DNA from: an uncultured Acidobacteriota bacterium
GTDB taxonomy: Bacteria > Acidobacteriota > Vicinamibacteria > Vicinamibacterales > 2-12-FULL-66-21
Assembly (NCBI GenBank): GCA_963734695.1
Contig: CAVTIL010000015.1
Coordinates: 465,260 to 529,259, forward strand
Direction: 5' to 3'
Length of the DNA: 64,000 nt
A program made the position numbers and the translations under genes. Under the pieces are notes generated by a model. That model had not been told where the DNA came from. It was given only the letters and a program-made list of their open reading frames with translations, and did not search any database. Below are positions 16,886 to 47,268 of the stretch, piece by piece. How positions within the stretch are numbered: the first letter of the stretch is position 1; every line of letters begins with the position of its first letter.

Positions 16886-19799
16886 TCACTTGTCGAGCAA
16901 CGTCCGCCAATCCATGACGACGACGAGTTGCGGATCGGGAAGGACCTTCAGAAGAAAGCGCTGACCGTTCTTGTCGACGGCGTACGGTCGGTTGTCGCCG
17001 CCCCTGATCTGTGTGGGGAACAACTTTTGAGGCACGCCCTGGGACACGCCGTTCGTCGCGTCAAAGCCAGCGGCCATCATCGTCCCATCGGGCGACACGA
17101 AGAAAAGCTCCTTGCCGTCCCCTCGCCAGCGGGGATACCGCCCGCCATCACGCGAAATAGTTCGCGCGGGGTCCTTGTTCGGGAACGGTCGGACGACGAT
17201 TTCGTAGCGGCCCGACGCGTTGGACTGGTAGGCGACCCAACGGCCGTCTGGCGAGAAGGTGCCATTGAGCTCGCTCTGTTTCGAGCTCACAAAGACCTTG
17301 GGCGTCCGGTCTCCGGACATGGACAGTGTCCACAGATCAAGATCTCCGTTCTTCTTGACGACGTTGAAGATCAGGACGTCGGCGCGCGACCAGGAGGCGA
17401 CCATGAAGCCGTTGGCTTCAGACTGCTCGACCTTCGCAAGAGGCACGTCGACCCCGCTACCATCGGAGTCGCGCAGAAACAGACTCTGGCCTCCCAGCCG
17501 GCCTGAGTTGAAGGCGATGTGCTTTCCGTCTGGCGACCACGCAGGGTCGAAGTCGGCGTGGTCATCCGTCAGAGGCGTCGCTCTTCCCGTCGTCAGTTCG
17601 ATCAGCCAGATATCGTTCTGCCGTTCGCCCGCGTGGACAGATAAGTTGGAAAAGGCCAGCTGCTGACCGTCCGGGCTCACATCGAGATTGCCGCCAGAAA
17701 ATCCCGGGGCGCCAACGGTTCCCACAGGTTGCCCGCTGCGGTCCACCCAGGTCAGCTGCGTTTCCGTTTTCGGCGGCGGCAGGAACACGAACCGGCCGTT
17801 CGTGGACACCGAGAACCCACGAGACCCCGGTAAGACTTGTGCTCGAAGGGCCACGGGATCGCCTTCCAGCCGGAGCGTTTCCTTATTGAAGGACTGCGCC
17901 ATCACGTTGCCGCCACGCGTGAAGAACACGTGTCCCGCGGCGTAGGCGACGGGGGACTCGAACGTTCCCATCACAACCGTGTCCGCCGTCGTCAGCGATC
18001 CCACGCGCAGCTCGTTTTTCATCCCAAGACCGGCGACGTACAGGAAACGTTGACCGTCCGGAAGGAACGCGGGCCGCCGATGCAGGGACGTCTGACGCTC
18101 GGTGACCGGTGTCGTGACCGGCGTCGCCATTCCGCCTCGCTTCACGTCGATTCGATACAGGTTGCCGTCGCTGGACGGCCCGAAGACGACGATGCCCTGG
18201 CTGTTCCAGGTCCCGGAAGGGGCCATCCCGAGACTCTCCCAGTTCTCGGGCATGGACACGGGCCATGGCAACGGCACGACCGCTGCTCCGCCGCTCGCCT
18301 TCACGGTTTTCAACTGATTGCCGGCAAAGAAACCTATCGACTGGCTGTCCGGGCTCCAGAATGGATTGCGCGCGCCATCCGTGCCACGAATCGGCCGTGC
18401 ATCGACCGCGGCCAACGATCGCACCCAAAGCGACGACCCGGCTTTCGAATTCGCGATGAACGCGACGTGTCGGCCGTCGGGAGACACGTTGAAATCGACC
18501 GCCTGTGTCGTGAAGCTCCAGCCCTCGGGAGGGAGAATTGGAAATTCGACGTGCTCGGGCACCGCCGGCGGCACGTCACGACGGTTGAGCAGCATCATTC
18601 CACCCAACGTCAGCGCGAGGGCTGCAGCAACAATCCAGCCGAGCCGGTCCCGAACGCGGCCTGACTTTGCCGGCGTCGCCTCAGTCGCCGACGCGGTCGA
18701 TGCGAGTGGTTTGCTCCCATCATCGAGTTCGATCCGTGCGTCCGCGATGTCGTGGAGCCGGTGGCGCGGATCCTTCTGCAAGCATCGATCGAGCAACGTG
18801 CGGATGGATGCCGGTGTTTTTGCGGGCAGCGCGGTCCAGTCTGGCGCGTGCTCCAGGATGCTAACGAACGTGTCGGAGATCGTGTCGCCGTCAAACGCCC
18901 GGCGCCCCGACAGCATTTCGTAGAGCACGCACCCGAACGCCCAGATATCTGTGCGTTTATCGACCGCCTGCCCGCGCGCTTGCTCCGGGCTCATGTAGGC
19001 CGGCGTCCCGAGAATCCGTCCCTCGTCGGTTCCGTCGAGCGAGCCCGGCGGCCGCTGGGTCAGGTCTCCCTCCAGACCAACGGCTATCGACTTGGCGAGG
19101 CCGAAGTCGAGCACTTTCACGCGTGTCTCGCTCGACGGCACGCCCGCGGCGTTTGCCGAGCTTTGCAGCACGATGTTGCCCGGCTTCAGATCGCGATGGA
19201 CGATGCCCTTCTCGTGCGCGGCGTCGAGTGCCTCGGCGATCTGGCGCGCAATCGCGAGCGCGTCTGCGATCGGCAGCGGTCCGCGTTCGAGCCGTTCCGC
19301 CAGCGTGGGACCCTCGACGAGCTCGAGGACCAACGCGGTCAGCGCCATCGGTTTCTTCCAGTCCGTAGATCGCGCCGATGTGCGGATGGTTGAGCGTGGC
19401 TAGGAGACGCGCTTCGCGCGCGAAGCGCGCGCGTCGTTCCGGGTCGGAGGTGAAGTGCGACGGCAGGATCTTGATCGCGACGTCGCGACCGAGCTTGCTG
19501 TCACGTGCGCGATAGACCTCGCCCATCCCGCCGGCACCGAGCGGCGCAACGATCGTGTACGGGCCGATCTGCCGGTTCAGCATCGGTACTCCGGTGGGAG
19601 CGCCTGCGACGATAGCCGCAGCGGGCGTTTCGAGGAAGCGACTCGACGCCGACTCGTGGACAAGCAGGGACTCCACTTCCTGTCGCAGCGACTCGTCTCC
19701 ATCGCACGCGTCCCTCAGGAACGCACGGCGCTCGGCTGGCGCGCGCCCCAGCGCCGCGTGATAGATGTCCGAGACGCGATCGCGCGATTCCGACGACAT
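16886..19799 (-). CDS. Ser/Thr protein kinase with TM segment and C-terminal PD40/TolB-like beta-propeller sensor. Apparent 1-nt insertion near 19345.
   Basis: N-terminal frame 18957..19799 holds the kinase subdomains (GAGGMGEVYRARD...VAIKIL) up to ...IYGLEETDG. The frame then switches to the 16886..19348 ORF (ALTALVLELVEGPTLAERL...HRDLKPGNIVL...DFG...PEQ). Relative to the downstream paralog (gatggcgtggccgcg), this copy reads gatggcgctgaccgcg. Confidence 0.7.
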
Positions 19800-19805
19800 A
19801 CCGTC

Positions 19806-22710
19806 TCATCTGGAGAGCAGCGCGCGCCAATCGAGGATGAGCCGGGGCGGCACATCGACCGGCAACGGAATCAGAAAGCGCTGACCATCCGCGCTGACCG
19901 CATACGGGTTGTTGTTTCCAAATCGAAGTGGCGTCGCGAAGAGTTTCTGCGGGGCAGCGGCGACGGAACCTGTCTTGGGATCGAAGCCCGCCGCCATCAT
20001 CGTGCCGTCTGGCGCCAGGTAGAACAGTTCCCTGCCATCCCGCCGCCACACAGGGTACATCCCTCCGTCGCGTGAGACCCTCAGAGCCGGTTCACCGGCT
20101 GGAAACGGCCAGACGTACACCTCGAGGGCGCCGTTCGCATCCGATTGATGCACGATCCAACGACCATCCGGAGACAGCTTTGCGTTCATCTCTTTATACT
20201 TCGTGTCTAGAAACAGCCTGGGCTTGCGATCGCCTGACATGTCTATCGTCCACAGGTCCTCACCGAGGTTATAGACAATGGTGTTGGTGAGTGACCAATC
20301 TGGTCCGGTGACGCCGCGGCTCGGCTCACGCGGCACCACTGACTCGGCCGCGCCGCGGCCATTCGAGGCAAGCATGGATAACCCGAACTGGCCTTGCGTG
20401 GGGATCGGCTTTTCGTTGAATGCGAGTCGCTGCCCGTCCGGGGACCAAGTGGGATCGAACTGCCATGCGGGGTAGTCGTCGGTCAGGCGCGTCGCAATTC
20501 CGGTGGACAGTTCGATCGTCCAGAGGTCGAACTCCTGGCGACCATCCTGTTCCGTCATGCGGGAGACTGCCAGGCGGTGCTCGTCCCGGCTCAGACCGAG
20601 GTTTATGTATACACCGACACCGCCGACGGTGCTACGAGGAGAGCCGTTTCGGTCGACCCACGTCAGCTGCGATTGGTCCCGCGCCGAGGCGCGGGTACAC
20701 GAGTCGGCCGGCCGCTGACACGGCGAACATCCCGTGCTGATTGTGAGGTTCGATACCGGTCCGCCGGCCCAGATCGATCGGATCACCGAGGAGCTTCCGG
20801 TTGTCCGGATCGAACCGCTGCGCCATGAGGTTGCCGCCGCGCACGAAGAAGAGATAGCCGGCCCCGTAAGCGGCATTCGACTCGAATGGCCCGATGATTT
20901 CGGCGGTCGCAGGTGTCAGCGATCCGACGCGCAGTTCGAAACTGGTGTCGCCGGCTAGATACAGGAAGTGTTGTCCGTCGTCGAGAAACCAAGGCCACCG
21001 GTCCCCGACGGCGGTGTTCTTCGGGATGGTGACCCGCGTCGCCTTCCCGCCTTTTGCGCTGATGCTATAGAGGGCGTGGTCGTCGAGCGGTCCGAACACG
21101 ATGATGCCACTGCTACTCCAGGTTCCGCCGCCGTTATTCGAGTGTTGGCCGCCGGCCGGACCTGCCGCACTCACTGTGAACGGAGACCCGCCGTCTAGAG
21201 GAACAGTCTTCAGGTTCCTGTCCTGAAGGTAGCCAATCGTCTTGCTATCCGGGCTCCAGAATGGGCCTCGCGCGCCTTTCGTATCGGGGATCTCGCGAGG
21301 CTCGACTGTGCCCAACGATCGAACCCACAGTGACGATCCGATCCTCGACGTTGCGATGAACGCGATGTGGCGGCCATCGGGCGAGACGGCGATTCCCTGA
21401 CTGGCGAAACGCGAGCTGTCTGGCGCGTTGACGGGGACCTCGACAAGTGCCGGCGTGGAGGGCGGTGCGGCTGGGCGATTGCGCAACGCAACCCAACCGG
21501 TAGCCGCGATCGCAGCCGTGAGGAGCCAGGGGAGCCAAGCTCGGGTGCCCTGCGCCCAGGGCATGGGCTCTTTGTCGGTCTCCTGGCCCTCGTGAGTGGC
21601 GCAGTCGTCGAGTTCGATGAGTACATCCGCGATGTCATGCAGCCGCTTGCGCGGATCTTTACGCAAGCATCGCTCGATCAATGTGCGGATCGATGCCGGT
21701 GTTTTTGTTGGTAGCGTCGTCCAGTCTGGCTGGTGCTCCAGAATTCTTGCGAACGTGTCGGAGATCGTCGCGCCGTCGAACGCGCGCCGGCCTGCCAGCA
21801 TCTCGAACAACACACATCCGAACGCCCAGATATCTGTGCGTTTATCGACCGCCTGCCCGCGCGCCTGCTCCGGGCTCATGTAGGCCGGCGTCCCGAGAAT
21901 CCGTCCCTCTTCGGTTCCATCGAGCGAGCCCGGCGGCCGCTGGGTCAGGTCTCCTTCGAGTCCGACTGCCATCGTCTTGGCCAGACCGAAGTCGAGCACT
22001 TTCGCGCGGGTCTCGCTCGACGGGACGCCCGCGGCGTTTGCCGATCTTTGCAGCACGATGTTGCCCGGCTTCAGATCGCGATGGACGATGCCCTTTTCAT
22101 GCGCGGCGTCGAGTGCTTCAGCGACTTGACGCGCAATCGCGAGCGCGTCTGCAATCGGCAGCGGTCCACGTTCGAGCCGTTCCGCCAGGGTTGGACCCTC
22201 GACGAGTTCGAGCACTAACGCGGCCACGCCATCAGTTTCTTCCAGCCCGTAGATCGCGCCGATGTGCGGATGGTTCAGAGTGGCGAGCAGGCGGGCTTCG
22301 CGCGCAAACCGTGCGCGTCGTTCCGGGTCGGAGGTGAAGTGCGTCGGCAGAATCTTGATCGCCACGTCGCGAGCGAGCTTGCTGTCACGTGCGCGATAGA
22401 CCTCGCCCATCCCGCCGGCGCCGAGCGGCGCAACGATTGTGTACGAGCCTATCTGGCGATTCAGGATCTGAGATCGGCCGTCCACACGTGTCAGGACGCC
22501 CGCGACCACGCCGACGGCGGCGGGTGTCTCCAGAAACGGCCCGGCTGCGGACTCGTAGGCGAGCAGCGACTCGACTTCGTGCCGGAGGGCCGCATCGCCA
22601 TCGCATGCCGCTTGCAGGAACCGAGCGCGCTCCGCCGCTGGACGCGCAAGCGCCGCATGATGAAGCTCCGAGATCCGTTTGCGTCGGTCTGGCTCCATGA
22701 CCTCGATCAC
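19806..22710 (-). CDS. Ser/Thr protein kinase with TM segment and C-terminal PD40 beta-propeller (tandem paralog). Apparent frameshift near 20690.
   Basis: The 692-aa N-terminal frame carries the full kinase domain (GAGGMGEVYRARD, HRDLKPGNIVL, DFGLAK, YMSPEQ), a TM segment and the start of the propeller. Its C-terminal tail is out of frame. ORF 19806..20876 continues with QLTWVDRNGSP...LILDWRALLSR, matching the C-terminus of the upstream paralog. Confidence 0.7.
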
Positions 22711-25055: not shown

Positions 25056-28000
25056 TCAGGGTTTTATGGTCTTTTCCTCAGTTACTTCAGTTTGACCTTC
25101 ACCGGGCCGTTCGCCTGGACGAAGACGCCGTTGGCGTCCGTCAGATCGATGTAGATGTTGTAGCAGCCGACCGTCGAACGGCTTCGTCTGCCAGTTGAAG
25201 TGCCAGGTAAACGACGTCGTGTCGTAGTTGAAATCGCTGTTGCCCGGCGCCTGCTTGTCCAGGAACGGCACGCCGGTTTCGCTACCGTTCGTGCAGCTGG
25301 TGAGCGTTCTGACGCGCACGATCGGAACAAGCGTCCTCGTGTCAACAGGCGTCGCGCCTGACAGGTATTGCCACAGGAGCGGCACGGCGCTGCCCTGGTT
25401 GGCCGTCGCGGGGACGATCAACCCGCCGAACGCGAACGACAGCTGCACCGTCACGGTGAAGCTCTTTGTTGATGCGTTGAGCGCAGCGTCTTTCGCTGTG
25501 CACGTCACCGACGACGTGCCAATCGGGAACGTCGATCCGCTCGCAGGGCTGCAGGCGACGGACACGACGCCGACCGCATCGGTCGCGGGAGGCGTCGGAT
25601 ACGACACCGGAGCGCCCGCCAGGTTTGCGGTCCCTTTCGTCACGTTCGCGGTGGCGCCGATCACCGGAGCCGTCGTGTCCCGGACGAGCACCGAGAAGCT
25701 GGACGAGGCCGTATTGGTCGCGGCATCCGACGCGCGGCACGACACCGTCGTGGTGCCAATCGGGAAGGTCGAGCCGCTCGACGGCGTGCACGAAACGGAC
25801 GTGACGCCGACCGCATCCGTGGCTGACGGCAGCGCGAAGGTGACGGCGGCACCGGCCGCACTCGTCGCTTCGACGACGATGCCTGCCGGAGTCGCGATCG
25901 CGGGCGCGGTCACGTCCTTGACCGTGACCTTGAACGAAGCGGTAGCAGTATTGCCGGCCGCGTCCTTCGCGGTGCAGGTCACAACCGTCAAGCCGACGTT
26001 GAATGACGTGCCGCTCGCCGGCGAGCAGGTCTGCGACACGACGCCGACCGCGTCGGTTGCGGCGACGTTATACGTCACGGTGGCGCTGGTCGCATTGGCG
26101 GCGGCGTTCACCGTAACGTCGGGTGTCGACGCGAACGTGGGCGGCGTGACGTCCTTGACGATGACGTTGAAGATGGTGGTCGCCGTGTTGCCGGCCGCAT
26201 CGGAAGCCGTGCAGGTCACCGTGGTCGAGCCGACGGCGAACACGTGAGCCGCTGGCCGGTGAACAGGACAGGGAGGTCACGCCGATGTTGTCTGCGGCGG
26301 TCGACTGAATAGGTCACGGTCGCGCTCGTCGCATCGGCCGCCGCATTGATCGTCGTGTCGCCTGTCGACCCGAACGTCGGCGGTGTGACGTCCCTGGGCA
26401 CGTCGCTCGTGCAGAACTGCGTGGGGTCCGACGTGTTGCAGGCCGGTGGAGCAACCGCCGGATCGGTCTCGTGTCCCGTGTTCTTCGCCTGCGCCGTCAC
26501 CACGACACCGGCCGCATCCGGGCTGAAGCCTGTCGTCCCGGTGATCCGGAGCGTGATCAGGATCGTCTCACCTGGTTCAACGGGGACGCTGGCCGTCGGG
26601 ACGACGTTCGGCGGAGCCACCGTATTGGCAATGATTTGATTCACCGCCGTCTGCACCGGCCTGCAGTTCTGCGGTCGTGGTCACCTTGTAAATCCGTCGA
26701 ACGATCAACTGTGTGCCGTGCGGCGGCGCGACGCTGAACAACGGGTTGATGTCGACGCCGGACGTGGTGTTGCCGTTCATCTTGACGGCCCACGTCACTT
26801 CTGAAATCGCCGAATTCTCGATGTCGGCGTTTTCAATGTCGGCGTTCTCGATGTCCGCGTTTTCAATGTCCGCGTACGGAAGCGTCGCGCTCTGGAAATC
26901 CGCGTTCTCGATGTCGGCGTTTTCAATGTCCGCAAACGACGGCGTAAAGGTCGGCAAATCCGGGTTTTCGATGTCCGCATTCGTCGTGTACGCGGAGAAT
27001 GTCTTGTTCTCGATGTCCGGATTGTGCAGCTCGACCGTCTTCAAGTTGAAGTTCTGGAAGTCGATGTTCGTGAAGTCAGGATTCTCGATGTCCGCGGAAA
27101 TCGGATTGCCATTCAGCTGCGCGGTTGCCGTCTCTCCGCCCGCGATAGGCGTGCAGCTTGACGGATCCGACTCGCTGACCTGCACCGTGATCGCCGGTGG
27201 TTGAATCGACGACGACGTGACGAAGACGGTCTTGACTGTCTCCCGATCGTCCAGGAATCGTCACGCAGGCATCCACGACCGGCGACGGCGAGCTCGTGTT
27301 GTACGGCGGCAGCGGCAGCTGCGCAAAGGTGGCGCGACCGGTCGTGCCCGACGGCGGCGCATCGGCCGGTTGGTTGCGCGATATGGAGCCTGTAGGTCTT
27401 CTTTTGCGGCGTCGTATTGCGCACCCAGACGACATAGGTCCGCTGAATGCTCCCTGTCGGTTTCGACGCCGACGGCACGGTGACGATCAGTCCGGGCTTG
27501 ATGGATGTGCCGAAAATCTCCTGGTTCCTGGTGTTCGCCAGCGGCGTCGCCGGTGAACACGCAGGATACGTCATCGTCGGATCGCCGACGCCGTCCTGCG
27601 GCGCCGTGAACGTCGGAGGCGTATAGCCGGTGGGCGCGACGAGATCGGCGATGGTGTTGCCGCGCAGCGATCGGTTGTCTCCCCACGCAACGAAGAACGT
27701 CGGCTTGACGTCGACGGGTGTCGTATTCGGCACCCAGGCTCGGGTCGCGGGATCGATCTTCCACTGCTTGCCGGCGACGGCAATGTAGTCGCCGACAAAC
27801 GGCGTCTTCCCCTGTTGGAAGATCCGGGAGTTCGCAAAGTTGTTCTCGAGCTGAGCGACGACTGGCTGCGTGTTGCCGCCCGCGAAGCCCGGCGGCGCGA
27901 GGCCGATCAGATAGCTGGAGACTTTGATCGACTGCGTCAGCGCGAACGGCGATGGCTTCGAGAAGACGAGCTTCGATCCATCCCAGACGCCTTGCGCCGC

Positions 28001-29362
28001 GCGCACGTCGATCGTGTGTCGGTGAACGTTCCCCTGCGCGTCACGGTAGTCGTTGACGAAGGGGAGTCCGTTGATCAGGGGCCCCTGGGACGGCGTCAGA
28101 TCGTCGCGCGTGTCGTACCACGCCACCTGCACGACGCCTTCGGACGCGCCGGCACTCGGAATGACCTGGAATCCGGGAAGCCCCGGGTAGTTGTCGACAA
28201 AGTCCGGGCTCCGCCACGATGTGCCGGTCGTCGTGCTGGAGTACTTGATTCGAGGAACGTTCGTCGATGGTTCTCGCTCCGCCCAGAAGACGTGGAATGC
28301 CCTGCCGTCGCTGACGAGCCACGGCAGCGCGTTGGTGCGGAACGTCACGTTGCTCGTGCCCTGATCGAAGGGGACGACGCTCGAGACGACGGCCAGCGTC
28401 CATTTCTTGCCGCGGTTGTCCGACACCGACGACATCACCGCATCGTGGCGTTGGAGTCCTTGAATCTGCGCCATGTCGCGATGAACCTGTCGCCAATCGA
28501 TGCCAGCGACACACCCTGATTGACGTTGACGGTCTGCGTGATCTTTGTGCCGGGCGTGTCCCACGTGAGACCGCAGTCGGTGGACTTGACCATCCAGATC
28601 GCGGTGTTGCTGCTCTGATCGCTGCCCAGGAAGATCGCATAGGCCACATCGACTTCGAATTTCTGGACTGTACGAATTCGCGGTCGTGCCATCCGGCCGC
28701 TTGAAAGGAATGTCGCACGTGCCCGGCAGCAGGCTGATCATCGATGCCGGCTTGTCGATGAAACGGCCGGCGACCCCGTTTGCAATCTGATGCGCAGGTT
28801 CGTTGGCGGGCTCGAACGGATAGCCGTCCTCCTTGTTCATCTCGACCCAGCGCTGGAAGAAGATGCCGCCGATCGTGTTGTCGCCGCGATTGCCGGCGAT
28901 GAAGACGTATCCCATGCCGCCGGGGAACGCGTTGACGGTCGGATCGGCGCCAAAGGCGAGGTTCAGCGACGGCGTGTCACCCTTGAAACCTGGAATCAGC
29001 CGGCTCACCCACGTGTCCCGGTTGCGAGACATCATGGCTCCCAGCCACGCGTCGCCGAGCACACCATCGGTGCGATCCGCTCCGCGGTAGTCGTTCGCGC
29101 CGCAGAAGACCGCGCCGGTTTCCGGCGAGATCGCGCACGACGGCTCGTTCTGCTGCTTCAGCCCGAATCCGGTAGCTTGCCTCCACAGAAGGGCGCCGTG
29201 GTACACGCCGGTGGTTGAGGCGTCGGGCCAACGAGCGTGAGGTTGCGACCGGGGACGCCCTGAGCGAACAGCAGTGAGTTCGGAGCAACGACCAGGGCAA
29301 CGACGATGATGATGAAGCGGTACAGGGATCGGCAGCGATCGAGCGCAGAGAGCAGCAATCAT
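25056..29362 (-). pseudogene. giant secreted multidomain protein (BNR/Asp-box sialidase-like propeller, ADIEN-type pentapeptide-repeat block, multiple HYR domains). At least 6 apparent frameshifts.
   Basis: AGGAGG-ATG at 29362. The signal peptide (RSLYRFIIIVVALVVAPNSLLFAQG) sits in a neighbouring frame. Asp-box STDCGLTWDTPGT in frame 28435..28692. Pentapeptide block ADIENADIENADIEN (26577..27185). HYR-like repeats TPPTF...VTCTAKDAAGNTA (25056..26243 and 26216..26656). The frames must be spliced repeatedly to give one continuous protein. Confidence 0.5.
26806..26940. repeat. 15-bp tandem repeat (gttttcaatgtcggc / gttctcgatgtccgc) encoding the ADIEN pentapeptide-repeat block
   Basis: Visible periodicity in the nucleotide sequence. 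The reverse strand encodes (A-D-I-E-N)n. Confidence 0.6.
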
Positions 29363-29596
29363 CCTCCTGAAAAATGAAGGTCAAGTCGTAAGAACGACTT
29401 TGCAGCGTTGACCTGAGCGAGAGGCGGGAGGAAAGGATCGAAGGGTTCCCGCAGCCCCATCAATATCAGATTAGCTCGACAGCAACAAGCTCTCCTTTTT
29501 GACCATGGTCGGAAGCAACAGCGGACAAGGGGTTTGGGCGGCAAAGAGCGCTGGACGGATGACTTTTGGCTGGCATCAGGAGGACTTCCGCGGTCT

Positions 29597-30940
29597 TCAC
29601 TGCTCCTGGACGGTCAAGCGGCGCATCATCGCTCGAAGCGTCCCGCCGGGATCCCGCGCGACGCCGCGGCCGACTTCGCCGAGCAGGCGCGCGGCTTGCG
29701 CCGCATTGCCGCCGGTTCGCTTCAGGGCCTCCTCGATCGCGATGCGCTGAAGCGCAGCGACTTCGTCCTTGAGGCTCATCGTACCGCGATCGATCCTCGT
29801 GGCCACGACGGCGCGGTCGATTGTGGCCTCGTCTTCGGGATCAGCCCCTCGCATCAACACGCGCTTCGGCAGATCGGACAGCAACACCTCGTTCCCGGCT
29901 CGCTTGTAGACGAGCGTCTCATACATCACATTGCGAAGCTCGCGGACGTTCCCGGGCCATGGATAGGCCAGCAAGGCCGCCAGCGCATCGGACGCAATCT
30001 CGACGACTGCATCACGCTTCTGCTCCCGCACGAAACGCTGCATGAAGTGCGTGGCAAGGGCCGGCAGATCTTCGAGCCGCTCTCGAAGCGGCAGGAGGTG
30101 AATCGTGACGATGGCGAGGCGCTCGTAGAGATCGGCTCCAAACAGGCCAGCGTGAATCAAGGACCGCAGGTCGCGGTTGGTCGCCGCCAGCAGGCGGAAA
30201 TCGACCTCGTGCCACGCGTTCTCGCCGAGCCGGTTGACGACTCGATCCTCTATCACGCGCAGTAGCTTCGTCTGCGTCTCGAGGGGCGTGTCGTCGATTT
30301 CGTCGAGGAACACCGTCCCGCCTTCGGCCGCCATGATCTGGCCGTCGTAGCGTTGCACCGCGCCCGAAAAGGCGCCGCGGGCGTAGCCGAACAGCTGCGC
30401 CTCCATCAGGTCGTTGGGGATTGCGGCGCAGTTGATCGCCACGAACCCCTTCGGGGCCCGAGGCGACCACGCGTGGAGCAACCGTGCGATCACTTCCTTG
30501 CCCGTACCGGTCTCGCCCGTGATCAAGACCGGCATCGATGTCGGCGCCACGCGGGCCGCCTGCTCGACGACGGCCCGCATCGCAGCACTGCCGGCGACGA
30601 TGTGAGCCGGCGGTTGCGGCGCGTCGTGCGCAATTGCAAGTTCCTGGAGCCGCGCAATCAACTTCGCGGGCGCGTCAGCGGCGGCCAGTGACAGTGCGGC
30701 ATATGCGCCGCGCCTCACCGCCTCGATCGCTCGGGACGCACTGATCGAGGACGTCGAGACCCAGATCCAGCGCGAGATGCCGTGAGGCGCCGACGGGGGC
30801 CGTCCGCTGGACGTGCTGATGACCGCCGACCGGTCGTGGTCCGTGTTATCGCGACGCTCGATGGTGAACCGGGCGTCGGTCAGGGCGCGCGCCACCGCGC
30901 GCGGAGGCGGTGATCCGGTCCACGTGATGATTTGCGGCAT
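29597..30940 (-). CDS. sigma-54-dependent transcriptional activator (bacterial enhancer-binding protein, Fis-family HTH) with atypical N-terminal domain
   Basis: Walker [22 protein letters not shown] variant of the GAFTGA sigma-54 contact loop. Walker B FLDEID. R-finger region. C-terminal HTH ([12 protein letters not shown]). The N-terminal ~130 aa does not look like a standard receiver, GAF or PAS domain. Confidence 0.8.
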
Positions 30941-31027
30941 GACATTATTTTAATGATGTTTTGCCATGAATTTAATCGCACTTTATCGTCTGACACACTG
31001 AAAAGCGCCCATTTCCTGACCTTCCAG

Positions 31028-31045
31028 GCGGTGCACGCCATGCAG
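31028..31045 (+). promoter_or_regulatory. candidate sigma-54 promoter (-24 GG / -12 GC) for the flotillin gene
   Basis: ggcGGtgcacgccatGCag: GG at 31030-31031 and GC at 31042-31043, giving canonical 10-nt spacing with a -12 TGCA. Lies 55 nt upstream of the ATG at 31098, which has a GGAGGAG RBS. The cognate bEBP gene is divergent. Confidence 0.45.
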
Positions 31046-31097
31046 TTCTCTTCATTCGGCCGATTCGAATGTCCGGTCGGCGTGGAGGAGACACATC

Positions 31098-32903
31098 ATG
31101 ACCCTGTCGTACGCACTCGTTCTCGAAGTCGCAGCCGCGATCCTGGCCGGTCTCGGCGCGATCGTGGTTCTCTCGAGCATTCGTGTCATCAAGGAGGATG
31201 AGTCGGGACTGGTGATCAAGCGATTCGGACCGCCGCTGCCGTCCGGCCGGATCATCGCGCTCAACGGCGAGGCCGGCTATCAGGCGCGTCTCTTGTCGCC
31301 AGGGTGGCACTTCGGGCTCTGGCGCTGGGAGTACAAGGTGGAGCGCGTTCCGATGGTGGTGATCCAACCGGGTGAGATCGCGCTGGTCGTCGCCGCCGAT
31401 GGTGAGACCATCCCGCCTGAGCGTGTGCTCGCGCATACGGTGGCGTGCAACGACTACCAGGATGCTGAGGGCTTTCTCGTCAACCACGGAGAGCGCGGCC
31501 GGCAGATTTCGGTGCTGACGGCCGGCACGTACCGTATCAACCCGGCGCTCTTCGAAGTCGTGACACCGGCCACGGCCAAGGCGCATGACATGGTGCCGGC
31601 GCAGTTGCACGTGTATCAGGTGCCGCCCGATCGCGTGAGCATTGTCACGATGCTGGACGGACGACCGATTTCGGCAGGCGATCTCGCCGGCCCTGTCGTA
31701 GCCGGACATGAGAGCTTCCAGCGCGGTCAGGCGTTCATGGACGCCAACGGCTGCCGCGGTCTGCAGGAGGAGGTGCTGCTGTCAGGCTCGTGGAACCTCA
31801 ACCCGTGGCTCGTGCAGGTCGAGCAGGTCCCGCTCACGGAGATCCCGATCGGGTACGTGGGCGTGGTCGTGAGCTACGTCGGGCGTGAACACCTGGACGT
31901 GTCGGGTGACGCGTTCACGCACGGCGATCTGGTGGAACGCGGACGCAAGGGCGTGTGGGTCGAGCCGCTCCTGCCCGGCAAGCACCCCATCAACGTGCGC
32001 GTCATGAAGGTGGAGCTCGTGCCGACGACGAACATCGTGCTGAACTGGGCGCAGCGAACCGAGGCGCATCACTACGACGAGCGGCTGTCGTCCATCAATG
32101 TGCGCTCGAAGGACGGGTTCTCGTTCAGCCTGGACGTGTCGCAGATCATCCATATCGGCATGAAGAACGCGCCGAGGGTCATCTCGCGCGTGGGCTCGAT
32201 GCAGAACCTCGTCGATCACGTCCTGCAGCCGACGGTCGGTAACTACTTCAGGAACTCGGCTCAGGAGGTGACCGTTCTCGATTTCCTGTGGGCGAGATCG
32301 GAGCGCCAGCGGGAGGCGTTTCAGAACATCCGCAAGGCGGTCGAGGCGTACGACGTGGAGTGCATCGACACGCTGATCGGCGACATCGCGCCGCCGGCGG
32401 AATTGATGAAGACCCAGACTGACCGCAAGATCGCGGCGGAGCTGCAGCGCACCTACGACGCGCAGCGCGAGGCGGAGATTCAGCGCCAGACGCTGGAGCG
32501 CGAAACGGCGATCGCGAACCTGCAGAGCGAGGTCGTTCGCTCCGAACAGATGGTGCGCATCTCGCAGCAGAACGCCCTCGCGGCCGCGGAAACGGCGCGA
32601 GGCGAGGCCAACGCGACCAAGTTGCGCGCGGAAGGCACCGCGGCGGCGGTTCGCATGGCGGGCGACGGTGAAGCCGCGGCAGTCCGTGCGGTCGGCGCCG
32701 CGAAGGCCGAAGCCTACCGCCTGGGCATCGAGGCGGTCGGCGCCGCCGGGTATACCTCCATGCAGATGGCGTCGATCCTCGGCGAGAACAAGGTGAAGCT
32801 GGTACCCGACATCGCCGTCAGCGGCGACGGCGGAGGACTGGTCAACGCCATGCTGGCGCGGCTGCTGGCAACAGGCGGGTCGGTCGAACCGCCGAAGCGC
32901 TAA
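31098..32903 (+). CDS. flotillin-like SPFH/band-7 domain membrane protein
   Basis: 601 aa. N-terminal TM (LVLEVAAAILAGLGAIVVLSS). SPFH domain. Long Ala/Glu-rich coiled-coil flotillin tail (AAETARGEANATKLRAEGTAAAVR...). Intact. Confidence 0.8.
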   Translation: MTLSYALVLEVAAAILAGLGAIVVLSSIRVIKEDESGLVIKRFGPPLPSGRIIALNGEAGYQARLLSPGWHFGLWRWEYKVERVPMVVIQPGEIALVVAADGETIPPERVLAHTVACNDYQDAEGFLVNHGERGRQISVLTAGTYRINPALFEVVTPATAKAHDMVPAQLHVYQVPPDRVSIVTMLDGRPISAGDLAGPVVAGHESFQRGQAFMDANGCRGLQEEVLLSGSWNLNPWLVQVEQVPLTEIPIGYVGVVVSYVGREHLDVSGDAFTHGDLVERGRKGVWVEPLLPGKHPINVRVMKVELVPTTNIVLNWAQRTEAHHYDERLSSINVRSKDGFSFSLDVSQIIHIGMKNAPRVISRVGSMQNLVDHVLQPTVGNYFRNSAQEVTVLDFLWARSERQREAFQNIRKAVEAYDVECIDTLIGDIAPPAELMKTQTDRKIAAELQRTYDAQREAEIQRQTLERETAIANLQSEVVRSEQMVRISQQNALAAAETARGEANATKLRAEGTAAAVRMAGDGEAAAVRAVGAAKAEAYRLGIEAVGAAGYTSMQMASILGENKVKLVPDIAVSGDGGGLVNAMLARLLATGGSVEPPKR

Positions 32904-32955
32904 CGAACGATGGCTCCCCCGCTCCGCGGTTTCGGCCGCGGGGCGGGTGACGCCG

Positions 32956-35697
32956 TCAGGGTTGCGGTCGTCCTGACGCAACGCGTCTTTTTAGATCCTC
33001 GAACCAATTGACCACGAGGTTGATCTGCGCGGCAGGCACGTCGGGCTCCACCGGCTGAACCATCAGGAATCGTCCATCTGCCGCCACGTCGTAGCCGGCA
33101 CCGCCGGTGTCGGTTCGCATGTAGTGACCCTCGAAGAGCACTCGCGGAAGCCCGGCAGCCAGCGTCGGCTTGTTCGATATCCGGACCGCCAGCATCGTGT
33201 CCTGTCGACGGTAGTACAACTCCTGGCCATTCCGTGACCAGGCAGGCTCATAGCCTCCATCGATCGAGACCTGCAGCTTGGCGCCGGGACCCGGGAAGGC
33301 CCTTACATAGATCTCGCTCTTGCCGGACTCGTCCGACGAATACGCGAGCGAGTGGCCGTCTGGTGCGAAGCGGGCGCCTCCCTCTACGGATCCCGTCTTC
33401 AGAAATACCTGCGGCTCACGCCGATCCATCTGAAGGACCATGAGGTCCGGCCCGGTGCCGGTCGAGGTATCCACGAACGCCAGGGACTTGCCATCCACTG
33501 ACCACGACGTCGGAGTCTGAAGGTTCTCGCTCGTGGTCAATCGCTTCTCTTCGCCGCCGCCGTCCACCGCCTTCACGTACAGATTCCGAAAGCCGGTCCG
33601 GCTCCCGCGATAGACGATGCGCGTGCCGTCCGGGGACCAGGTCGCGGATTGGCTACTCCCCACCGACGTCGACGTCAACGCGGCCAACGTGTGCCGAGTC
33701 AGGTCGTAGATCCATATGGCCTCGATAGCGCCCAGCGTGGTGAAAGCAAGATATTGTCCGTCGGGCGAGAGCATTGGATCCGTATACCCGCGCGGCGGCA
33801 GCGGCAGCGGATCGACGTTTCCGCCGGGGTCAACCCACACCAGCCGTCGGTCAAAGCGCCTCGGCGCTGCCGGGAGATAGGCCAGCAAGCCCGAGCCGGA
33901 CACAGTGAAGTGCGCGCCTTCATCGTCGAAGGCTCGTTCAGGCAGCGCCACTGGCGCACCGCTCACCTGCAGCTGCGAGAGATCGAACGGCACCGCAAAC
34001 AGCGCGTCGTCTCTGGAATAGACGATGTGTCCGGAGGATACGTACCGGCCCGTGCTCGCCCCCGGGACCAGTACCCGACGTTCGCCTGAGCCCAGCATGT
34101 GCAGATGAAGGTGTCTTTCATCCGACCCCGGACCGGTCCAGACCGTGAAGATGACGGCCGCACCGCCCGGCAGCATCTGCGGCCATCGATGGCTCACCTC
34201 GCCTTTGCTCCGGTCGAGCGTCGTGACCACGGTTGCCGAACCGCCCGCGGCAGAGACCTTCCACAAGGCCGAGGTGTTCGTCGGGGCAAAGTAGATCGTA
34301 TCGTCAGCCGCCCAGGTTCCGCCCTCGGTGCTCGCCGCGTCGCAAACGCTCTGGACGGCCCCACCAGTCGTGGGCACCCTCTTGAGTTTGCCCGTCGAGA
34401 AAAACCCGATCGACTGGCCGTCCGGGGAGAAGAATGGCGCGACGGCTTGCTCGGTTCCGGGGATTGCGCGTGTTTCCAGGCTGTCGACCGCGCGAATGAA
34501 GATCTGGGTCGTGCCTCCATGCAGGCCGATGTAAGCGAGCAATGTGCCGTCGGGAGACAACGCGATCGAGGGCCGTAGCGGATCCCCTATCAGGTCGCCC
34601 GGTGGCAACGGCATGGCGAGGCGGACGACGGGAGACGGAGGGACACTCGCCAGAGGTTTCAACGCCCACGTTGCAGCGACTGCAGCAACGACCGCAGCAA
34701 GGACGAGGACCGCTGCACGAGTGATTGAAATCCCTTTTCGCTGATTCGACGTTTCCGCTCTCGCGGCAGGGGAGACGTCGATCGCGGTCGCTGAGCTGCT
34801 CTCCAGCACCCACGTCAACTCGCGCGCGACGTCGCGGGCGCTCTGCCATCGATCCTCCGGGTCCTTCGCAAGACACGTCGCGATCAATCGGTCCAGCGCA
34901 CGAGGCGCCACCGGCTGGAGCGTCGACGCCGGTGGTGGCGTATCGCTCATGATCGAGCGCATCAGGCTCATCCGGCTGGGTCCGTCGAACGCCTTCTTGC
35001 CCGTGATCATCTCGTGGAGCAGCGTTCCAAACGCAAAGATGTCCGTTCTGGCGTCCGTCTCCTGCCCCTCGAGCTGTTCCGGCGCCATGTACTGCAGTGT
35101 GCCCAGAACCTCTCCTGCAACGGTCACATCGGCCTCGGTCGCGCCTACCGAGACCAACGCGCTCTGAGGATCCCGGAGCTTCGCCAGACCGAAGTCGAGC
35201 AGCTTCACACCGCTCTTGGTCAGCATCACGTTCCCGGGCTTCAGGTCCCGGTGCGTCACGCCGTGCCGATGCGCCTGATCCAGGGCGTCCGCGATCTCAA
35301 TTGCGTAGCGCAGCGTCTCGGGGATCCGAATTGGGCCGTGCTGGAGACGTGCGGCCAGTGTTTCGCCGTTCACGAGTTCCATCACGAGAAAGTCAATCTG
35401 CTCGTGGCGGCCCACGTCGTGAAGCGTGGTGATATGCGGGTGGTTCAACCCCGCGATCGTGCGTGCTTCGCGCTCGAAGCGGGCGCGGGCCTCGGGGTAC
35501 GACGACAAGTGCGCCGGGATGACTTTGATGGCGACGCTTCGATTGAGGCGGGGATCGCGCGCCTCGTAGACCTCGCCCATGCCACCGGCGCCAATGAGGG
35601 CGACGATTTCGTAGTGCCCCAGCCGGTTTCCTGCGGTCAAAGGCATGATTTGTCCAGGAGTGGCTGGATTATGGCATCGATCGAGCGGGCGGACCAT
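32956..35697 (-). CDS. Ser/Thr protein kinase with TM segment and large C-terminal PD40/WD40-like beta-propeller domain
   Basis: 913 aa. Kinase motifs GAGGMGEVYEARD, AIKVI, HRDLKPGNVML, DFGLAK, YMAPEQ. Then a TM segment (VLVLAAVVAAVAATWAL) and repeated PD40-like units (SPDG...LAF/LAY). Intact. Confidence 0.8.
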   Translation of the reverse strand: MVRPLDRCHNPATPGQIMPLTAGNRLGHYEIVALIGAGGMGEVYEARDPRLNRSVAIKVIPAHLSSYPEARARFEREARTIAGLNHPHITTLHDVGRHEQIDFLVMELVNGETLAARLQHGPIRIPETLRYAIEIADALDQAHRHGVTHRDLKPGNVMLTKSGVKLLDFGLAKLRDPQSALVSVGATEADVTVAGEVLGTLQYMAPEQLEGQETDARTDIFAFGTLLHEMITGKKAFDGPSRMSLMRSIMSDTPPPASTLQPVAPRALDRLIATCLAKDPEDRWQSARDVARELTWVLESSSATAIDVSPAARAETSNQRKGISITRAAVLVLAAVVAAVAATWALKPLASVPPSPVVRLAMPLPPGDLIGDPLRPSIALSPDGTLLAYIGLHGGTTQIFIRAVDSLETRAIPGTEQAVAPFFSPDGQSIGFFSTGKLKRVPTTGGAVQSVCDAASTEGGTWAADDTIYFAPTNTSALWKVSAAGGSATVVTTLDRSKGEVSHRWPQMLPGGAAVIFTVWTGPGSDERHLHLHMLGSGERRVLVPGASTGRYVSSGHIVYSRDDALFAVPFDLSQLQVSGAPVALPERAFDDEGAHFTVSGSGLLAYLPAAPRRFDRRLVWVDPGGNVDPLPLPPRGYTDPMLSPDGQYLAFTTLGAIEAIWIYDLTRHTLAALTSTSVGSSQSATWSPDGTRIVYRGSRTGFRNLYVKAVDGGGEEKRLTTSENLQTPTSWSVDGKSLAFVDTSTGTGPDLMVLQMDRREPQVFLKTGSVEGGARFAPDGHSLAYSSDESGKSEIYVRAFPGPGAKLQVSIDGGYEPAWSRNGQELYYRRQDTMLAVRISNKPTLAAGLPRVLFEGHYMRTDTGGAGYDVAADGRFLMVQPVEPDVPAAQINLVVNWFEDLKRRVASGRPQP

Positions 35698-43848: not shown

Positions 43849-45578
43849 TTACTTCGCGCCCGGCGCCGCTTCCGCCGGGTACACCTTCACCTCGACGCGT
43901 CGGTTCTTGGCGTTGTTCTCGGGATCGGACGGGTCAGCCGGGCGATCCCATCCGATCCCGGCGGTTGAGAACTGATTCGGCTGCAGCGACGGGAACTTCC
44001 GCACGATTGCTTCCTTCACGGAATTCGCGCGGTTCAACGACAGTTCCTGGACCAGGCTCTTCGGCACCGACGCCTTCATCGACGCGTCGGTATGTCCTTC
44101 GATCACGATCCGCGCCGCCCCGTACTGCCCTGCTAGCTTGCCAATCTCCTCGACGACGAATCCTACATTCGGGTCGTACAGCTCTTCGGTGTCCTTGCCG
44201 CCGGCGTCGCGCGTCACCTTCTTGTTGAGATCCCACGAGTTGGGGAAGAAATGGATGACCACGGTCTTGGTCAGGATCTCGTCCTTCTCGCCTTGAACCG
44301 TTCCGGCTGACGCCGGCGCGAAGTGGACGTCGTACTCGTTCTTCTGCGACGCGTATTTCGGCTCGGAGGCCAGCTTCTGGATGATGGAGAAATCCATTAC
44401 CTGATCGAACGGTGTCTGCTCGGTCACCGCGTTGATCCGCTTGTAGAGGAAGTACGCGTGGACCAGGTGCGCTCGAAACTGGTCGGGTTGTTTTGATTCA
44501 GGAAGAAGTCGCGGTTCTCGGCGTAGTTGGTCGAGTGCGCATCGCCGAGCATCCCGAGCGCGTCACCTTCAGGAATCGAGTAGCCCGCGGCCATCAGCTT
44601 CGCGACCTTCTGCTTCGAGTCCTGCGACTTCAAATCCACCATGGCGTCGAAAATGCCACGGGTGATCCCTTCCATGATGTCGGGATTGTCTTTGGCAAAG
44701 TCGGCGCGCGCGAACCACACGTCCGCGATCAGCTTGTTCGCCGTCGCCGTCGTCACGAGCATGTGATTGCCCTTGACCTTCTCGAGGTTGTAGATGTCGG
44801 GCGCCCAGCTGACCACGCCGGCAAGGCGCTTGTCGGCATTGAACGCTGCGGCCGCCTGGAACGCATCCTGGGTGAACTTGAACTCGATTTCTGCGGGCTG
44901 AACGCCCGCGTTGATGAGCGCGTTGAGGATGAAGAAGTGTGACGGCGAGTTCTGAGCCAGCACCACCGTCTTGCCGCGCAAATCGGCCATCGTCTTGATC
45001 GCGTCGCGGACGACGATGCCGTCGCCGCCGTTCGACCAGTCGACCTGCTGATACACGCGAGGCATGACGCGCGAGTCCTTGCGCAGGCCTTCGAGAAAGA
45101 GCGGGATCATGTCGAGCGTCGCCCAGCCGATGTGCAGGTTGCCGGCCGCGTACGCGTCGCGCATCACGATCGGATCGTCACTCAGCACGAGCTCGACCTT
45201 GAAGTCCTTGCCGCCGGGCGTCTTCCACAGCTTGCCGGGCTTGAAGCCGTTGTTCGCGAGAATGATCGGGCTCCAGCCGGCCCACACGTTGATGCCGAAT
45301 CGCACCGTGCGGTCGGCCATCGGCTTGTAGCTGGAGATGCCCTTGACCTCCGGCAGACGTGTCGCCGCGACGTAGTTGTATTCCTTGACCGTCGTGATGC
45401 CGGCGCTGTCCGGCGCTTCGGCGCCGCTCTGCATCTTCTTCAGCTCGTCGGCCGAGAATTGACCGGTCTGCGACTTCGGTCCAATCGCGCCATACCGCCA
45501 GAGCGCGAGACCGACGAGACCGAGCACCATCACCAGGACGGCGACGTAGAAAGTGGGTCTGGGCTTTCCGTTGGCCAT
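43849..45578 (-). CDS. NMT1/SsuA-like periplasmic substrate-binding protein fused to a C-terminal OmpA-like domain. Apparent frameshift near 44440.
   Basis: 384-aa SBP frame (TM anchor FYVAVLVMVLGLVGLALW, NMT1-like core) ends artificially in ...FERTWSTRTSSTSGSTR*. The adjacent frame reads through (...HAYFLYKRINAVTEQTPFD...) into the 192-aa ORF, which carries an OmpA-family motif set (IVIEGHTDASM...LSLNRANSVKEAIV...NRRVEVKVY). Confidence 0.55.
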
Positions 45579-45615
45579 GAATCCATGCTCCTGTCAGCTG
45601 CCCATGGAGGCTGCA

Positions 45616-46462
45616 TTACACTCTTCTCCGAGGGCTTCGCCTCTCGGATCCCAACACGCGCTCTGCGCGCGCTTCGTCGGCGCGCTCCTGCGCTGTTTGG
45701 ATTAATTCGTTTGTTTCTCGGTGGCTTTTTCGGCCGCGGGTCCGAGATCCTTCGCCGTCTGGCGCGATCGGCGATGTCTCGGGTGACTTCAAGCCCAGTT
45801 CGACCTCGAAGTCGGTGAGCGCCTGCTCGGCGAGCTGGCCTTGCATGCGCTCCTCGGCCTGGATCTCGGCGATGCCCTTCTGCGACAGATCCGCCGCCAC
45901 GCGCACCTTGCCGCGGTTCTGATCGATCTTCTGCTGGATGACGCTCTCGATCTCGCCGAAGTCCGTCGTCAGGTTCATGTCGAACGTCTCGGAGAGCTTG
46001 GCGATCTCGGCCTCGGCCGCGCTCATCTTCAGCTCGGCGTCGTACTTCTGGATCTTCTCGCGCAGCTCGATCAGCTTTTCGTTCGCGTGCTGGATCTTCT
46101 TCAGGCTGTTGCCGTAGGCGGTCTCGTGCATCTGGAGCTGGCCTTCGTTGGCCGCCAGCTCCTCCTTCGGCCTTCTGCAGCTCGAGCGCGAACTTTGCCG
46201 CGGTGGTGCGATCGCCGGCCTTGAGGTAGGCCTTCGTCTCCGCTTCGAGCTTCTGCACGTGCGACTTGTTGGCGGAGACCTGCCGGGTGACCCGCTCGAC
46301 GAGCCCGCGGTACTGCTCGAGGCCGGTGCGCCCTTCCTTGAGCTGCTCGACGGCGCGGTCGTACTCGTATCGCATCTGGGCCACCGGATCGGCCTCCCAG
46401 AAGATGTTCGCGACCTTGTTGATCTGCGCCACGAACGCGGACCAGAACTTGTGGAAAATCAC
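45616..46462 (-). CDS. pspA: PspA/IM30 (Vipp1) family protein. Apparent frameshift near 46150.
   Basis: N-terminus MIFHKFWSAFVAQINKVANIFWEADPVAQMRYEYDRAVEQLKEGR...AKFALELQKAE matches the PspA helix-1/2 pattern. Charged coiled-coil remainder (LKKIQHANEKLIELREKIQKYDAELKMSAAEAEIAKL...) is in the 45616..46131 frame. Confidence 0.65.
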
Positions 46463-46487: not shown

Positions 46488-47268
46488 TTACTTCCCGGCG
46501 GGTTCCCGCTCGCCGCCGGCCGCCTCGGCAAGAATCTTGCCCTGGTAGATACCGTCGAGCGCCGTGCGCAGCTCGACGCCGGTTCCGGCGCCGATCACAT
46601 CGCCGCCGACGTCCTTCAGAAACGCGAACTTTTCCGGGCTCGTATCGAACGCGACGAAGTAGGTCTGCACGCCGCCTTCACTCTTCCGCCAGATGTCGCG
46701 CGCCACGTCATCGGGGCTGCGGCCGTTCGTGTTCTCGCCGTCGGTGACGACGAGCAGGTACTTGCGGAACACGCCGGCGCGATACAGGTCTGGACGCGCC
46801 TCGCGCATCGCCTCGCCGATCGCCGTGCCGCCGCCCGGCCGCGGCAGGTTCGCCAGCGTCGAGCGAACCGACGCGCGATCGTACGGCTGAATCGGCCGCA
46901 GGACGTGGACGCTGCTCGAAAAGCTGTAGACGCCAATCTTGATTGGAAAGTCCGGCCGGCGGGCGATGAACGCGTCGGTCGCGTCGAGCATCGCCTCGAG
47001 CGCTTCCTGCGCGACGACGTACTTCGGTCGCGAGTCGCCGGGCGGCGTTCTGCTTCATCGATCCCGAGGTGTCGACCAGGATCGCGACCGCGGCACCGAG
47101 TCCCTCTTCGACTTCGGCCTGATACGGCGCGTCGGACTCCGGAGCGTCGCGGGTCGAGGCCTTGGACCTGTCGCGGTGTGCCGCCGGCTGGCAGGCCAGA
47201 AGAAGCGACGGCAGCAGGATGGCGAGAGCCAACCCCCGTGTTCGTCCAGCGATGGAGCGGGTGTTCAT
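46488..47268 (-). CDS. von Willebrand factor A (vWA) domain lipoprotein. Apparent frameshift near 47040.
   Basis: Lipobox LAILLPSLLLAC. MIDAS motif AILVDTSGSM in the N-terminal frame. YLLVVTDGENTNG and vWA C-terminal half in frame 46488..46991. Confidence 0.6.

Follow-up and report, generated by a model that had tools for sequence, protein, structure and literature searches.

A predicted sigma-54 module, laid out like pspF-pspA, pairs a divergent enhancer-binding protein with a flotillin-like SPFH gene

In Enterobacteria, the pspF-pspA(BCDE) locus sets the gene of a bacterial enhancer-binding protein (bEBP), PspF, divergently from the sigma-54-dependent gene of a stress protein that associates with the membrane, forms oligomers and has a coiled-coil structure. 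PspF lacks an N-terminal regulatory domain, works without a histidine kinase and represses its own promoter. The bEBPs of the FleQ/FlrA type begin with a receiver-like N-terminus devoid of the phospho-acceptor aspartate, which precedes the AAA+ and helix-turn-helix (HTH) domains. Among flotillins, FloT of B. subtilis is encoded by the yuaF-floT-yuaI operon, which depends on sigma-W, a stress sigma factor. Here we analysed a 64-kb stretch of DNA (64,000 nucleotides, hereafter the window) from an uncultured soil bacterium of the Acidobacteriota, order Vicinamibacterales (contig CAVTIL010000015.1), in which a bEBP gene and a gene for an SPFH/Band-7 protein diverge from a shared spacer (Table 1). 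A sequence-only reading of the window had described this pair as a bEBP facing a sigma-54-driven flotillin gene in the manner of pspF-pspA. Synteny, a conserved promoter element and helically phased palindromes in the shared spacer support that description, and argue that the two genes form a real, conserved and dedicated sigma-54 module with the pspF-pspA layout. We consider it likely that the neighbouring bEBP, when bound at 30943-30980, activates the SPFH gene through a promoter at 31029-31044.

Firstly, we established that the arrangement of the two genes is conserved. SPFH relatives were collected by scanning one genome per species with a profile made from a 32-homolog alignment, the best 80 of 583 loci were kept, and bEBP neighbours were located by tblastn of the window bEBP against these loci. 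A bEBP homolog lies divergent from the SPFH gene, 100-600 bp away (usually 100-200), in 41 loci among L001-L050; the loci with an adjacent bEBP belong to Vicinamibacterales, Myxococcota (many of them) and Rokubacteriota. The pair is also present in six of six closer metagenomic relatives (SPFH proteins 85-94% identical), and a few other Myxococcota loci carry a bEBP homolog 2-4 kb from the SPFH gene. No bEBP homolog was found within 6 kb of the SPFH gene in any of the 29 loci of Cyanobacteria, Verrucomicrobia and Chloroflexi; rpoN is rarely present in Cyanobacteria (PMC12316311). The genes that flank the pair vary from one locus to the next and, because the pair is kept while its flanks differ, the conserved unit appears to consist of the two genes and their spacer.

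Secondly, we examined the promoter region in the 48 loci where a bEBP adjoins the SPFH gene, namely the 41 genome loci, the 6 closer metagenomic relatives and the window, taking as the score of a locus the best plus-strand match to a sigma-54 matrix within 120 nt before the SPFH start. The median best score was 9.5 bits on the SPFH strand versus 1.8 bits on the opposite strand, and scores of at least 8 bits were reached in 27 of the 48 loci on the SPFH strand versus 2 on the opposite one; loci lacking an adjacent bEBP had a median of 1.1 bits. A GG-N10-TGCA element occupies the same position on the SPFH strand in nearly all of the 48 loci, with the consensus yGGC..g-N4-aTGCA, 30-55 nt upstream of the ATG and farther where the untranslated region (UTR) carries insertions. 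In seven close relatives GG and TGCA are invariant while the neighbouring bases drift, and across the seven closest sequences the diverged spacer retains only two upstream sites (UAS1 and UAS2), GG, ATGCA, one dyad and a hairpin in the 5'-UTR. By position, the window sequence CGGTGCACGCCATGCA is orthologous to the CGGCGCACTCCATGCA of the nearest relatives. The gap between the two genes extends to 400-600 bp in five loci, in four of which (L032, L035, L036 and L038) the upstream sites and the promoter precede an inserted open reading frame (ORF). This ORF of about 130 amino acids (aa; MKFQI... or MRFQI..., for example L035 5456-5848, + strand) stands before the SPFH gene and would form a two-gene operon with it in some Myxococcota; its sole Pfam matches, to bacterial PH domains, are sub-threshold (E ~0.07).

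Thirdly, we found that the upstream sites are placed with rigid geometry relative to the promoter element. In the window, the spacer measures exactly 157 bp and its bEBP-proximal 59 nt (30941-30999) contain 32% GC versus 64% for the window, only 18 of 63,941 segments of that length being equally AT-rich. This AT-rich part, proposed earlier as the binding region of the bEBP, holds two copies of a palindrome with the consensus CRTGATTnnAATCAYG, and the comparison bears the proposal out insofar as these putative sites are conserved and phased. Ranked with a matrix derived from other loci only, UAS1 (19.0 bits) and UAS2 (15.8 bits) come first and second in the 64 kb; the background is 0.094 matches per kb in ~0.94 Mb of related loci. 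The centres of UAS1 and UAS2 lie 79.5 and 57.5 bp, respectively, from the -24 GG of the window. Across loci the two palindromes are spaced 21-23 bp centre to centre, and the distance from the proximal palindrome to the -24 GG falls into classes of ~50, 60 and 71 bp, stepping by one helical turn (mean resultant length 0.65 for a 10.5-bp period, n=38 phylogenetically non-independent loci). Such phasing suggests that the palindromes are functionally linked to the -24/-12 element, and we regard it as the strongest argument for this predicted promoter being real. In addition, five Myxococcota loci whose bEBP is not adjacent (L010, L022, L025, L029 and L043) keep both the palindromes and the -24/-12 element, which fits an action of the bEBP in trans on the SPFH promoter.

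No further paired upstream sites were detected in the 64-kb window. The evidence therefore points to a dedicated single-target module and not to the regulon that had been suggested initially.

Several observations weigh against a sigma-54 promoter in the window or soften the comparison. The sigma-54 matrix is an approximation to the published consensus; the upstream-site matrix had the family's own sequences as its seed, the window sites being excluded when the window was ranked; the loci share phylogeny, so that counts over them are non-independent; and no ORF with an RpoN box was found in the window or in 87 related loci. The window motif keeps the GG-N10-GC spacing with more than two mismatches to TGGCAC-N5-TTGCW, and its -24 part reads GGTGCA rather than GGCACG, fitting the general consensus poorly. 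With the approximate matrix the motif scores 3.3 bits (shuffle p 0.275), and it reaches only rank 320 of 127,970 positions in the scan of the window, while consensus and matrix scans find stronger matches elsewhere, inside genes. GG-N10-GC as such occurs in the window at chance frequency (1149 observed versus 1122 expected). Finally, a sigma-70-like sequence, TTGCCA-17-TATCGT, matches at 9 of 12 positions on the SPFH strand at 30961-30989 and is the sole such match in 29000-33500.

The -24/-12 promoter of the sequence-only reading is thus indistinguishable from chance when taken alone; what stands is its position and its GG and TGCA bases, conserved in the relatives. The putative promoter, GGTGCACGCCATGCAG (31030-31045, 54-55 nt upstream of the SPFH ATG), is uncallable from the window's own sequence and takes its significance solely from this conservation. 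It is a worked example of a sigma-54 promoter missed by single-genome matrix scans. The extent and AT-richness of the spacer, the distance of the motif from the gene and the strong ribosome-binding site are all as first reported.

The low score could also mean that the module is ancestral and that its promoter has decayed in this genome, with GGTGCA at -24, leaving the gene poorly inducible or silent. The gap between 3.3 bits here and the family median would agree with decay, as would the generally low scores of the Vicinamibacterales relatives (4-8 bits). We hold this to be improbable. Neither ORF is disrupted, strong constraint on the SPFH protein shows in its identity of 92-94% with the nearest relatives, the two upstream sites outrank every other match in the window, GG and TGCA, which never vary, are kept with their exact spacing, and GGT variants of the -24 part recur in other loci (L004, L006, L012, L027, L029, L030 and L083).

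The isolated 9/12 match raises a different possibility, that most transcription of the SPFH gene starts at an ordinary sigma-70 promoter in the spacer, for instance at 30961-30989, and that the bEBP regulates itself or a distant gene; the weakness of the -24/-12 match in the window speaks for it as well. Nevertheless, the hexamers are unconserved in close relatives, whereas GG and ATGCA are conserved, and they overlap the conserved palindromes. Moreover, synteny, promoter and upstream sites co-vary over three phyla, and the five Myxococcota loci cited above retain palindromes and -24/-12 element without an adjacent bEBP. Transcription mainly from a sigma-70 promoter seems to us quite unlikely. 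Lastly, the chance frequency of GG-N10-GC would allow the adjacency of the two genes and the motif to be coincidental, a reading to which we give almost no credence since 48 loci share the pair, the promoter and the upstream sites, with helically phased spacing and although their flanks vary.

Two further elements of the spacer are conserved. At the position of the dyad, L081-L086 and L002 carry sequences resembling GAATCAGGCCTGATTTC, with a perfect AAATCAGGCCTGATTT in L002 and L085. The dyad includes a TGATT half-site in everted orientation; it could be a site for a bending protein or a third regulator site. The 5'-UTR hairpin has a 9-bp stem in five close relatives, where the only changes are to G-U pairs and compensatory substitutions are absent, which is weak evidence for the structure; in L081, a 35-nt insertion falls within its loop.

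We then considered the regulator. By its sequence, the window bEBP has the features expected of a sigma-54 activator: an AAA+ domain with Walker A (GETGTGKE, aa 142) and Walker B (VFLDE, aa 210), a GAFTGA-type loop (GAFSGA, aa 189), an HTH and putative upstream sites. The ATPase motifs are intact and the protein also matches AAA_lid_14 of Pfam, so that Pfam and motif checks agree with the AAA+ domain, GAFSGA loop and C-terminal HTH recognized at first sight. No NCBIfam equivalog was matched at or above its cut-off. The N-terminal domain had been called non-canonical, and indeed aa 1-118 match no Pfam family, Response_reg (PF00072) is not matched anywhere in the protein, and a profile of the domain found nothing meaningful among PDB sequences. 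Fold comparison of the model, however, identifies a receiver-like fold, so that the N-terminus is best described, on the strength of that model, as a degenerate receiver without phospho-acceptor residues and not as a novel fold. The modelled fold is trimmed, with no helices assigned between b2 and b3 or between b3 and b4, and the linker that follows is proline-rich and not a coiled coil. No Asp or Glu is conserved at the ends of b1 and b3 across 32 homologs, while a T-x-S-x-R-x-P loop and a WIW strand are conserved and specific to this family.

These features set the window bEBP apart from its closest described counterparts. Like the FleQ/FlrA class, it combines a receiver-like fold lacking the acceptor aspartate with AAA+ and HTH domains; unlike that class, it has an N-terminus without Pfam similarity, a trimmed fold, its own family-specific loop and strand, and a different target. 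Unlike NtrC, DctD and NtrC1, it has no conserved acidic pocket or acceptor aspartate, no Response_reg match and no adjacent histidine kinase, and its linker is proline-rich; the NtrC-class model TIGR01818 gives 288 bits versus a cut-off of 559. Unlike PspF, it carries a pseudo-receiver of 105 aa. Because this regulatory domain is present and both NCBIfam models of PspF score below their cut-offs (TIGR02974, 256 versus 444 bits; the other, 222 versus 529 bits), the window bEBP does not appear to belong to the PspF family. The resemblance to pspF-pspA lies in the layout: the upstream sites in the shared spacer overlap the promoter region of the activator, suggesting autoregulation, and no kinase is involved. 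The target, in turn, is an SPFH protein and not PspA/IM30, and feedback of the target on the activator is only hypothetical here.

We propose that sigma-54 RNA polymerase would rest as a closed complex on the -24/-12 element (31029-31044). The divergently encoded bEBP would bind the palindromes at 30943-30958 and 30965-30980 through its C-terminal Fis-type HTH, at centres that are separated by two helical turns and precede the -24 GG by ~57 and 79 bp, and would form an AAA+ ring which, with ATP and the GAFSGA loop, opens the promoter. Sigma-54 dependence in vivo is what we infer from this arrangement. The resulting mRNA, starting near 31055, would encode the flotillin-like membrane protein, which accordingly appears, from the conserved control region, to be made on demand and not constantly; it is predicted to be monocistronic because the next gene, a Ser/Thr kinase with PD40 repeats (32956-35697, - strand), is convergent. 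No Shine-Dalgarno sequence precedes the bEBP ATG (30940) in the window or in relatives, and UAS1 lies 3 nt from the start codon, so that the bEBP promoter must overlap the predicted binding sites; the bound bEBP would therefore probably repress its own promoter, as PspF does, and the bEBP mRNA may be leaderless. Since the pseudo-receiver cannot be phosphorylated on aspartate, its gate would not be a histidine kinase, and none adjoins the bEBP-SPFH pair in the relatives' loci; the bEBP would instead answer to a ligand, to a partner protein or to a modification of another kind.

Table 1. Coordinates of the features of the bEBP-SPFH module in the window and of the c-di-AMP riboswitches in related loci
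Feature	Position	Strand	Remarks
bEBP gene, 447 aa	29597-30940	-	ORF and Pfam; pseudo-receiver, AAA+ sigma-54 activator domain, Fis-type HTH
N-terminal pseudo-receiver domain, ~aa 1-105	30626-30940	-	
AAA+ sigma-54 interaction domain, aa 115-281	30098-30598	-	Pfam Sigma54_activat (PF00158), 1.6e-61
GAFSGA loop, aa 189-194	30359-30376	-	Inside the AAA+ domain
C-terminal Fis-type HTH, aa 396-421	29678-29755	-	Pfam HTH_8, 1.2e-5, 25.3 bits versus 22-bit cut-off
UAS1, 16-bp palindrome CATTATTTTAATGATG	30943-30958	.	3 nt from bEBP start codon; putative bEBP site
UAS2, 16-bp imperfect palindrome CATGAATTTAATCGCA	30965-30980	.	Centre 22 bp from UAS1; putative bEBP site
Conserved dyad GAAAAGCGCCCATTTC	31000-31015	.	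Between upstream sites and promoter; palindrome scan
Putative sigma-54-type promoter CGGTGCACGCCATGCA	31029-31044	+	GG 31030-31031, GC 31042-31043; predicted start near 31055
5'-UTR hairpin	31059-31081	+	Arms 31059-31067 and 31074-31081; just 5' of the ribosome-binding site
Ribosome-binding site GGAGGAG	31084-31090	+	Precedes the SPFH gene
SPFH/Band-7 gene, 601 aa	31098-32903	+	Band_7 (PF01145) aa 249-463, 2.9e-21, 76.7 bits versus 23.6 cut-off
c-di-AMP riboswitch, locus L065	5648-5805	+	
c-di-AMP riboswitch, locus L070	5618-5785	+	
c-di-AMP riboswitch, loci L055, L060, L063, L067, L069			
c-di-AMP riboswitch, loci L071, L072, L073, L076, L078			

The target protein is more safely defined by its domain than by its name. 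It had been read as a flotillin/SPFH protein, of which the Band_7 domain and a long stretch of coiled coil stand, while similarity to YqiK and flotillin-2 is only marginal. Against PDB, phmmer returned QmcA (1.3e-4) and flotillin-2 (1.6e-3), and no NCBIfam model was matched. Homology to YqiK of E. coli was considered and set aside as unconvincing, the BLASTP match (E 0.004) being confined to the coiled coil and the hhalign probability being 2.5%; relatives of the protein are named 'YqiK' by annotators of the Joint Genome Institute (JGI). On sequence grounds, 'flotillin-like SPFH protein' appears to be the defensible name and 'flotillin' a loose label. In a low-confidence AlphaFold2 model built on a shallow alignment of 32 sequences (pLDDT, predicted local distance difference test, 44), an N-terminal hydrophobic helix (aa 5-27) is followed by a beta-rich part (aa 28-248), and a long helix lies towards the C-terminus (aa 440-563). 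The conserved region of ~220 aa before Band_7 has no Pfam match. As modelled, the protein resembles YqiK and FloT in being membrane-anchored with a long C-terminal coiled coil; it differs from them by the additional conserved beta-rich region of ~220 aa before the SPFH domain, and neither in the window nor in relatives does an NfeD/YqiJ partner gene lie next to the gene for this protein. Its control would also differ from that of FloT, with sigma-54 and a bEBP rather than an extracytoplasmic function (ECF) sigma factor. SPFH identity is 78-94% within the order (92-94% for the nearest relatives) and ~70% to Myxococcota. Towards Cyanobacteria, Verrucomicrobia and Chloroflexi it is still ~60% over ~570 aa, unusually high across phyla, which suggests strong constraint or horizontal transfer.

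Orthologs outside the bEBP-bearing lineages point to another form of control. A c-di-AMP riboswitch (RF00379) lies upstream of the SPFH ortholog, on the same strand and ~100-400 nt before its start, in 12 of the 12 Verrucomicrobia-type loci tested, with scores of 47-64 bits versus the Rfam gathering score of 38. Neither the window nor any of 12 loci from Cyanobacteria and Chloroflexi yielded one. One SPFH gene family thus appears, from these predicted elements, to be tightly controlled by two devices of unrelated kinds, depending on the phylum; unlike that of the riboswitch-bearing orthologs, control in the window would act on transcription initiation through a protein activator. Riboswitches for c-di-AMP (ydaO/yuaA) typically control genes of osmotic, cell-wall and potassium homeostasis. 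Because the Verrucomicrobia-type orthologs sit behind such riboswitches, our best guess for the SPFH protein is a role in membrane or osmotic stress. Among the riboswitch loci, L060 (from a metagenome-assembled genome labelled Chitinophaga) also contains a GOLLD RNA (RF02032, 161.9 bits) at 10711-11150 on the - strand, ~5 kb from the SPFH gene, and L070 contains a cluster of about ten tRNA genes.

The roles of bacterial SPFH and flotillin-like proteins are largely unclear; nine of them in Pseudomonas gave no clear phenotypes in a 2026 study (PMC13086221). Regulated control of one family narrows the search for its function, and the two types of control point to membrane, osmotic or envelope stress as inducing conditions. 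In a literature search that left most subscription journals outside, we found no publication linking a flotillin or SPFH protein to sigma-54, RpoN or a bEBP, surveys of sigma-54 regulons included, nor one linking it to a c-di-AMP riboswitch; the suggestion that sigma-54 control is undescribed for flotillins agrees with this result. The pairing also assigns a likely target to a subfamily of orphan bEBPs in the bEBP-rich myxobacteria, and offers material for experiments in the form of a defined promoter, two defined operator sites (both predicted) and the culturable carriers Corallococcus, Hyalangium and Vitiosangium. A bolder and, to our minds, doubtful extension is that the SPFH protein and the bEBP constitute a self-contained sensor of membrane state, in which the scaffold or the state of the membrane would control the bEBP through its pseudo-receiver, by analogy with but independently of PspA-PspF; the c-di-AMP riboswitches of Verrucomicrobia would then mark the SPFH family as conserved effectors of osmotic, turgor or envelope homeostasis. 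If true, it would provide the first physiological handle on this widespread bacterial flotillin-like family.

A PspA homolog had also been reported 13 kb away, and this claim did not hold up well. The ORF concerned (45530-46462, - strand) matches PspA_IM30 over aa 1-107 only, with 26.1 bits, below the cut-off of 33.9 bits. Beyond aa 107 it is of low complexity, and its more plausible coiled-coil continuation is an ORF in a different frame (45616-46131, - strand), which makes a frameshift or an assembly error possible. Owing to the sub-threshold match and this possible frameshift we downgraded the PspA link, and, as no paired upstream sites occur there, nothing ties the ORF to the bEBP-SPFH module. 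Ahead of the PspA-like ORF, and in the same orientation, stand the genes of a VWA-domain protein and of MscL (46488-46991 and 47330-47782, both -). The VWA coding sequence contains a palindromic sigma-54-like match, GGGCAAGATTCTTGCC (46527-46542, 10.8 bits), at a distance of 66 nt upstream of the start of the PspA-like ORF.

Other candidates around the module were rejected. A terminator-like hairpin after the SPFH gene (32975-32987) has only 5 bp and falls within the convergent kinase ORF, and this kinase, considered as a partner of the pseudo-receiver, does not consistently accompany the pair in relatives. Ser/Thr kinase genes recur within 20 kb (16886-19348, 20632-22710 and 32956-35697, all on the - strand), two of them with C-terminal PD40/beta-propeller repeats; that at 20632-22710 matched kinase domains only, and PD40 repeats are encoded after it by a separate ORF (19806-20876). 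A further ORF, at 26577-27185 on the - strand, contains a run of ADIEN pentapeptides (…NADIENADIENADIENADIENS…); so short a tandem repeat is unusual in a protein sequence.

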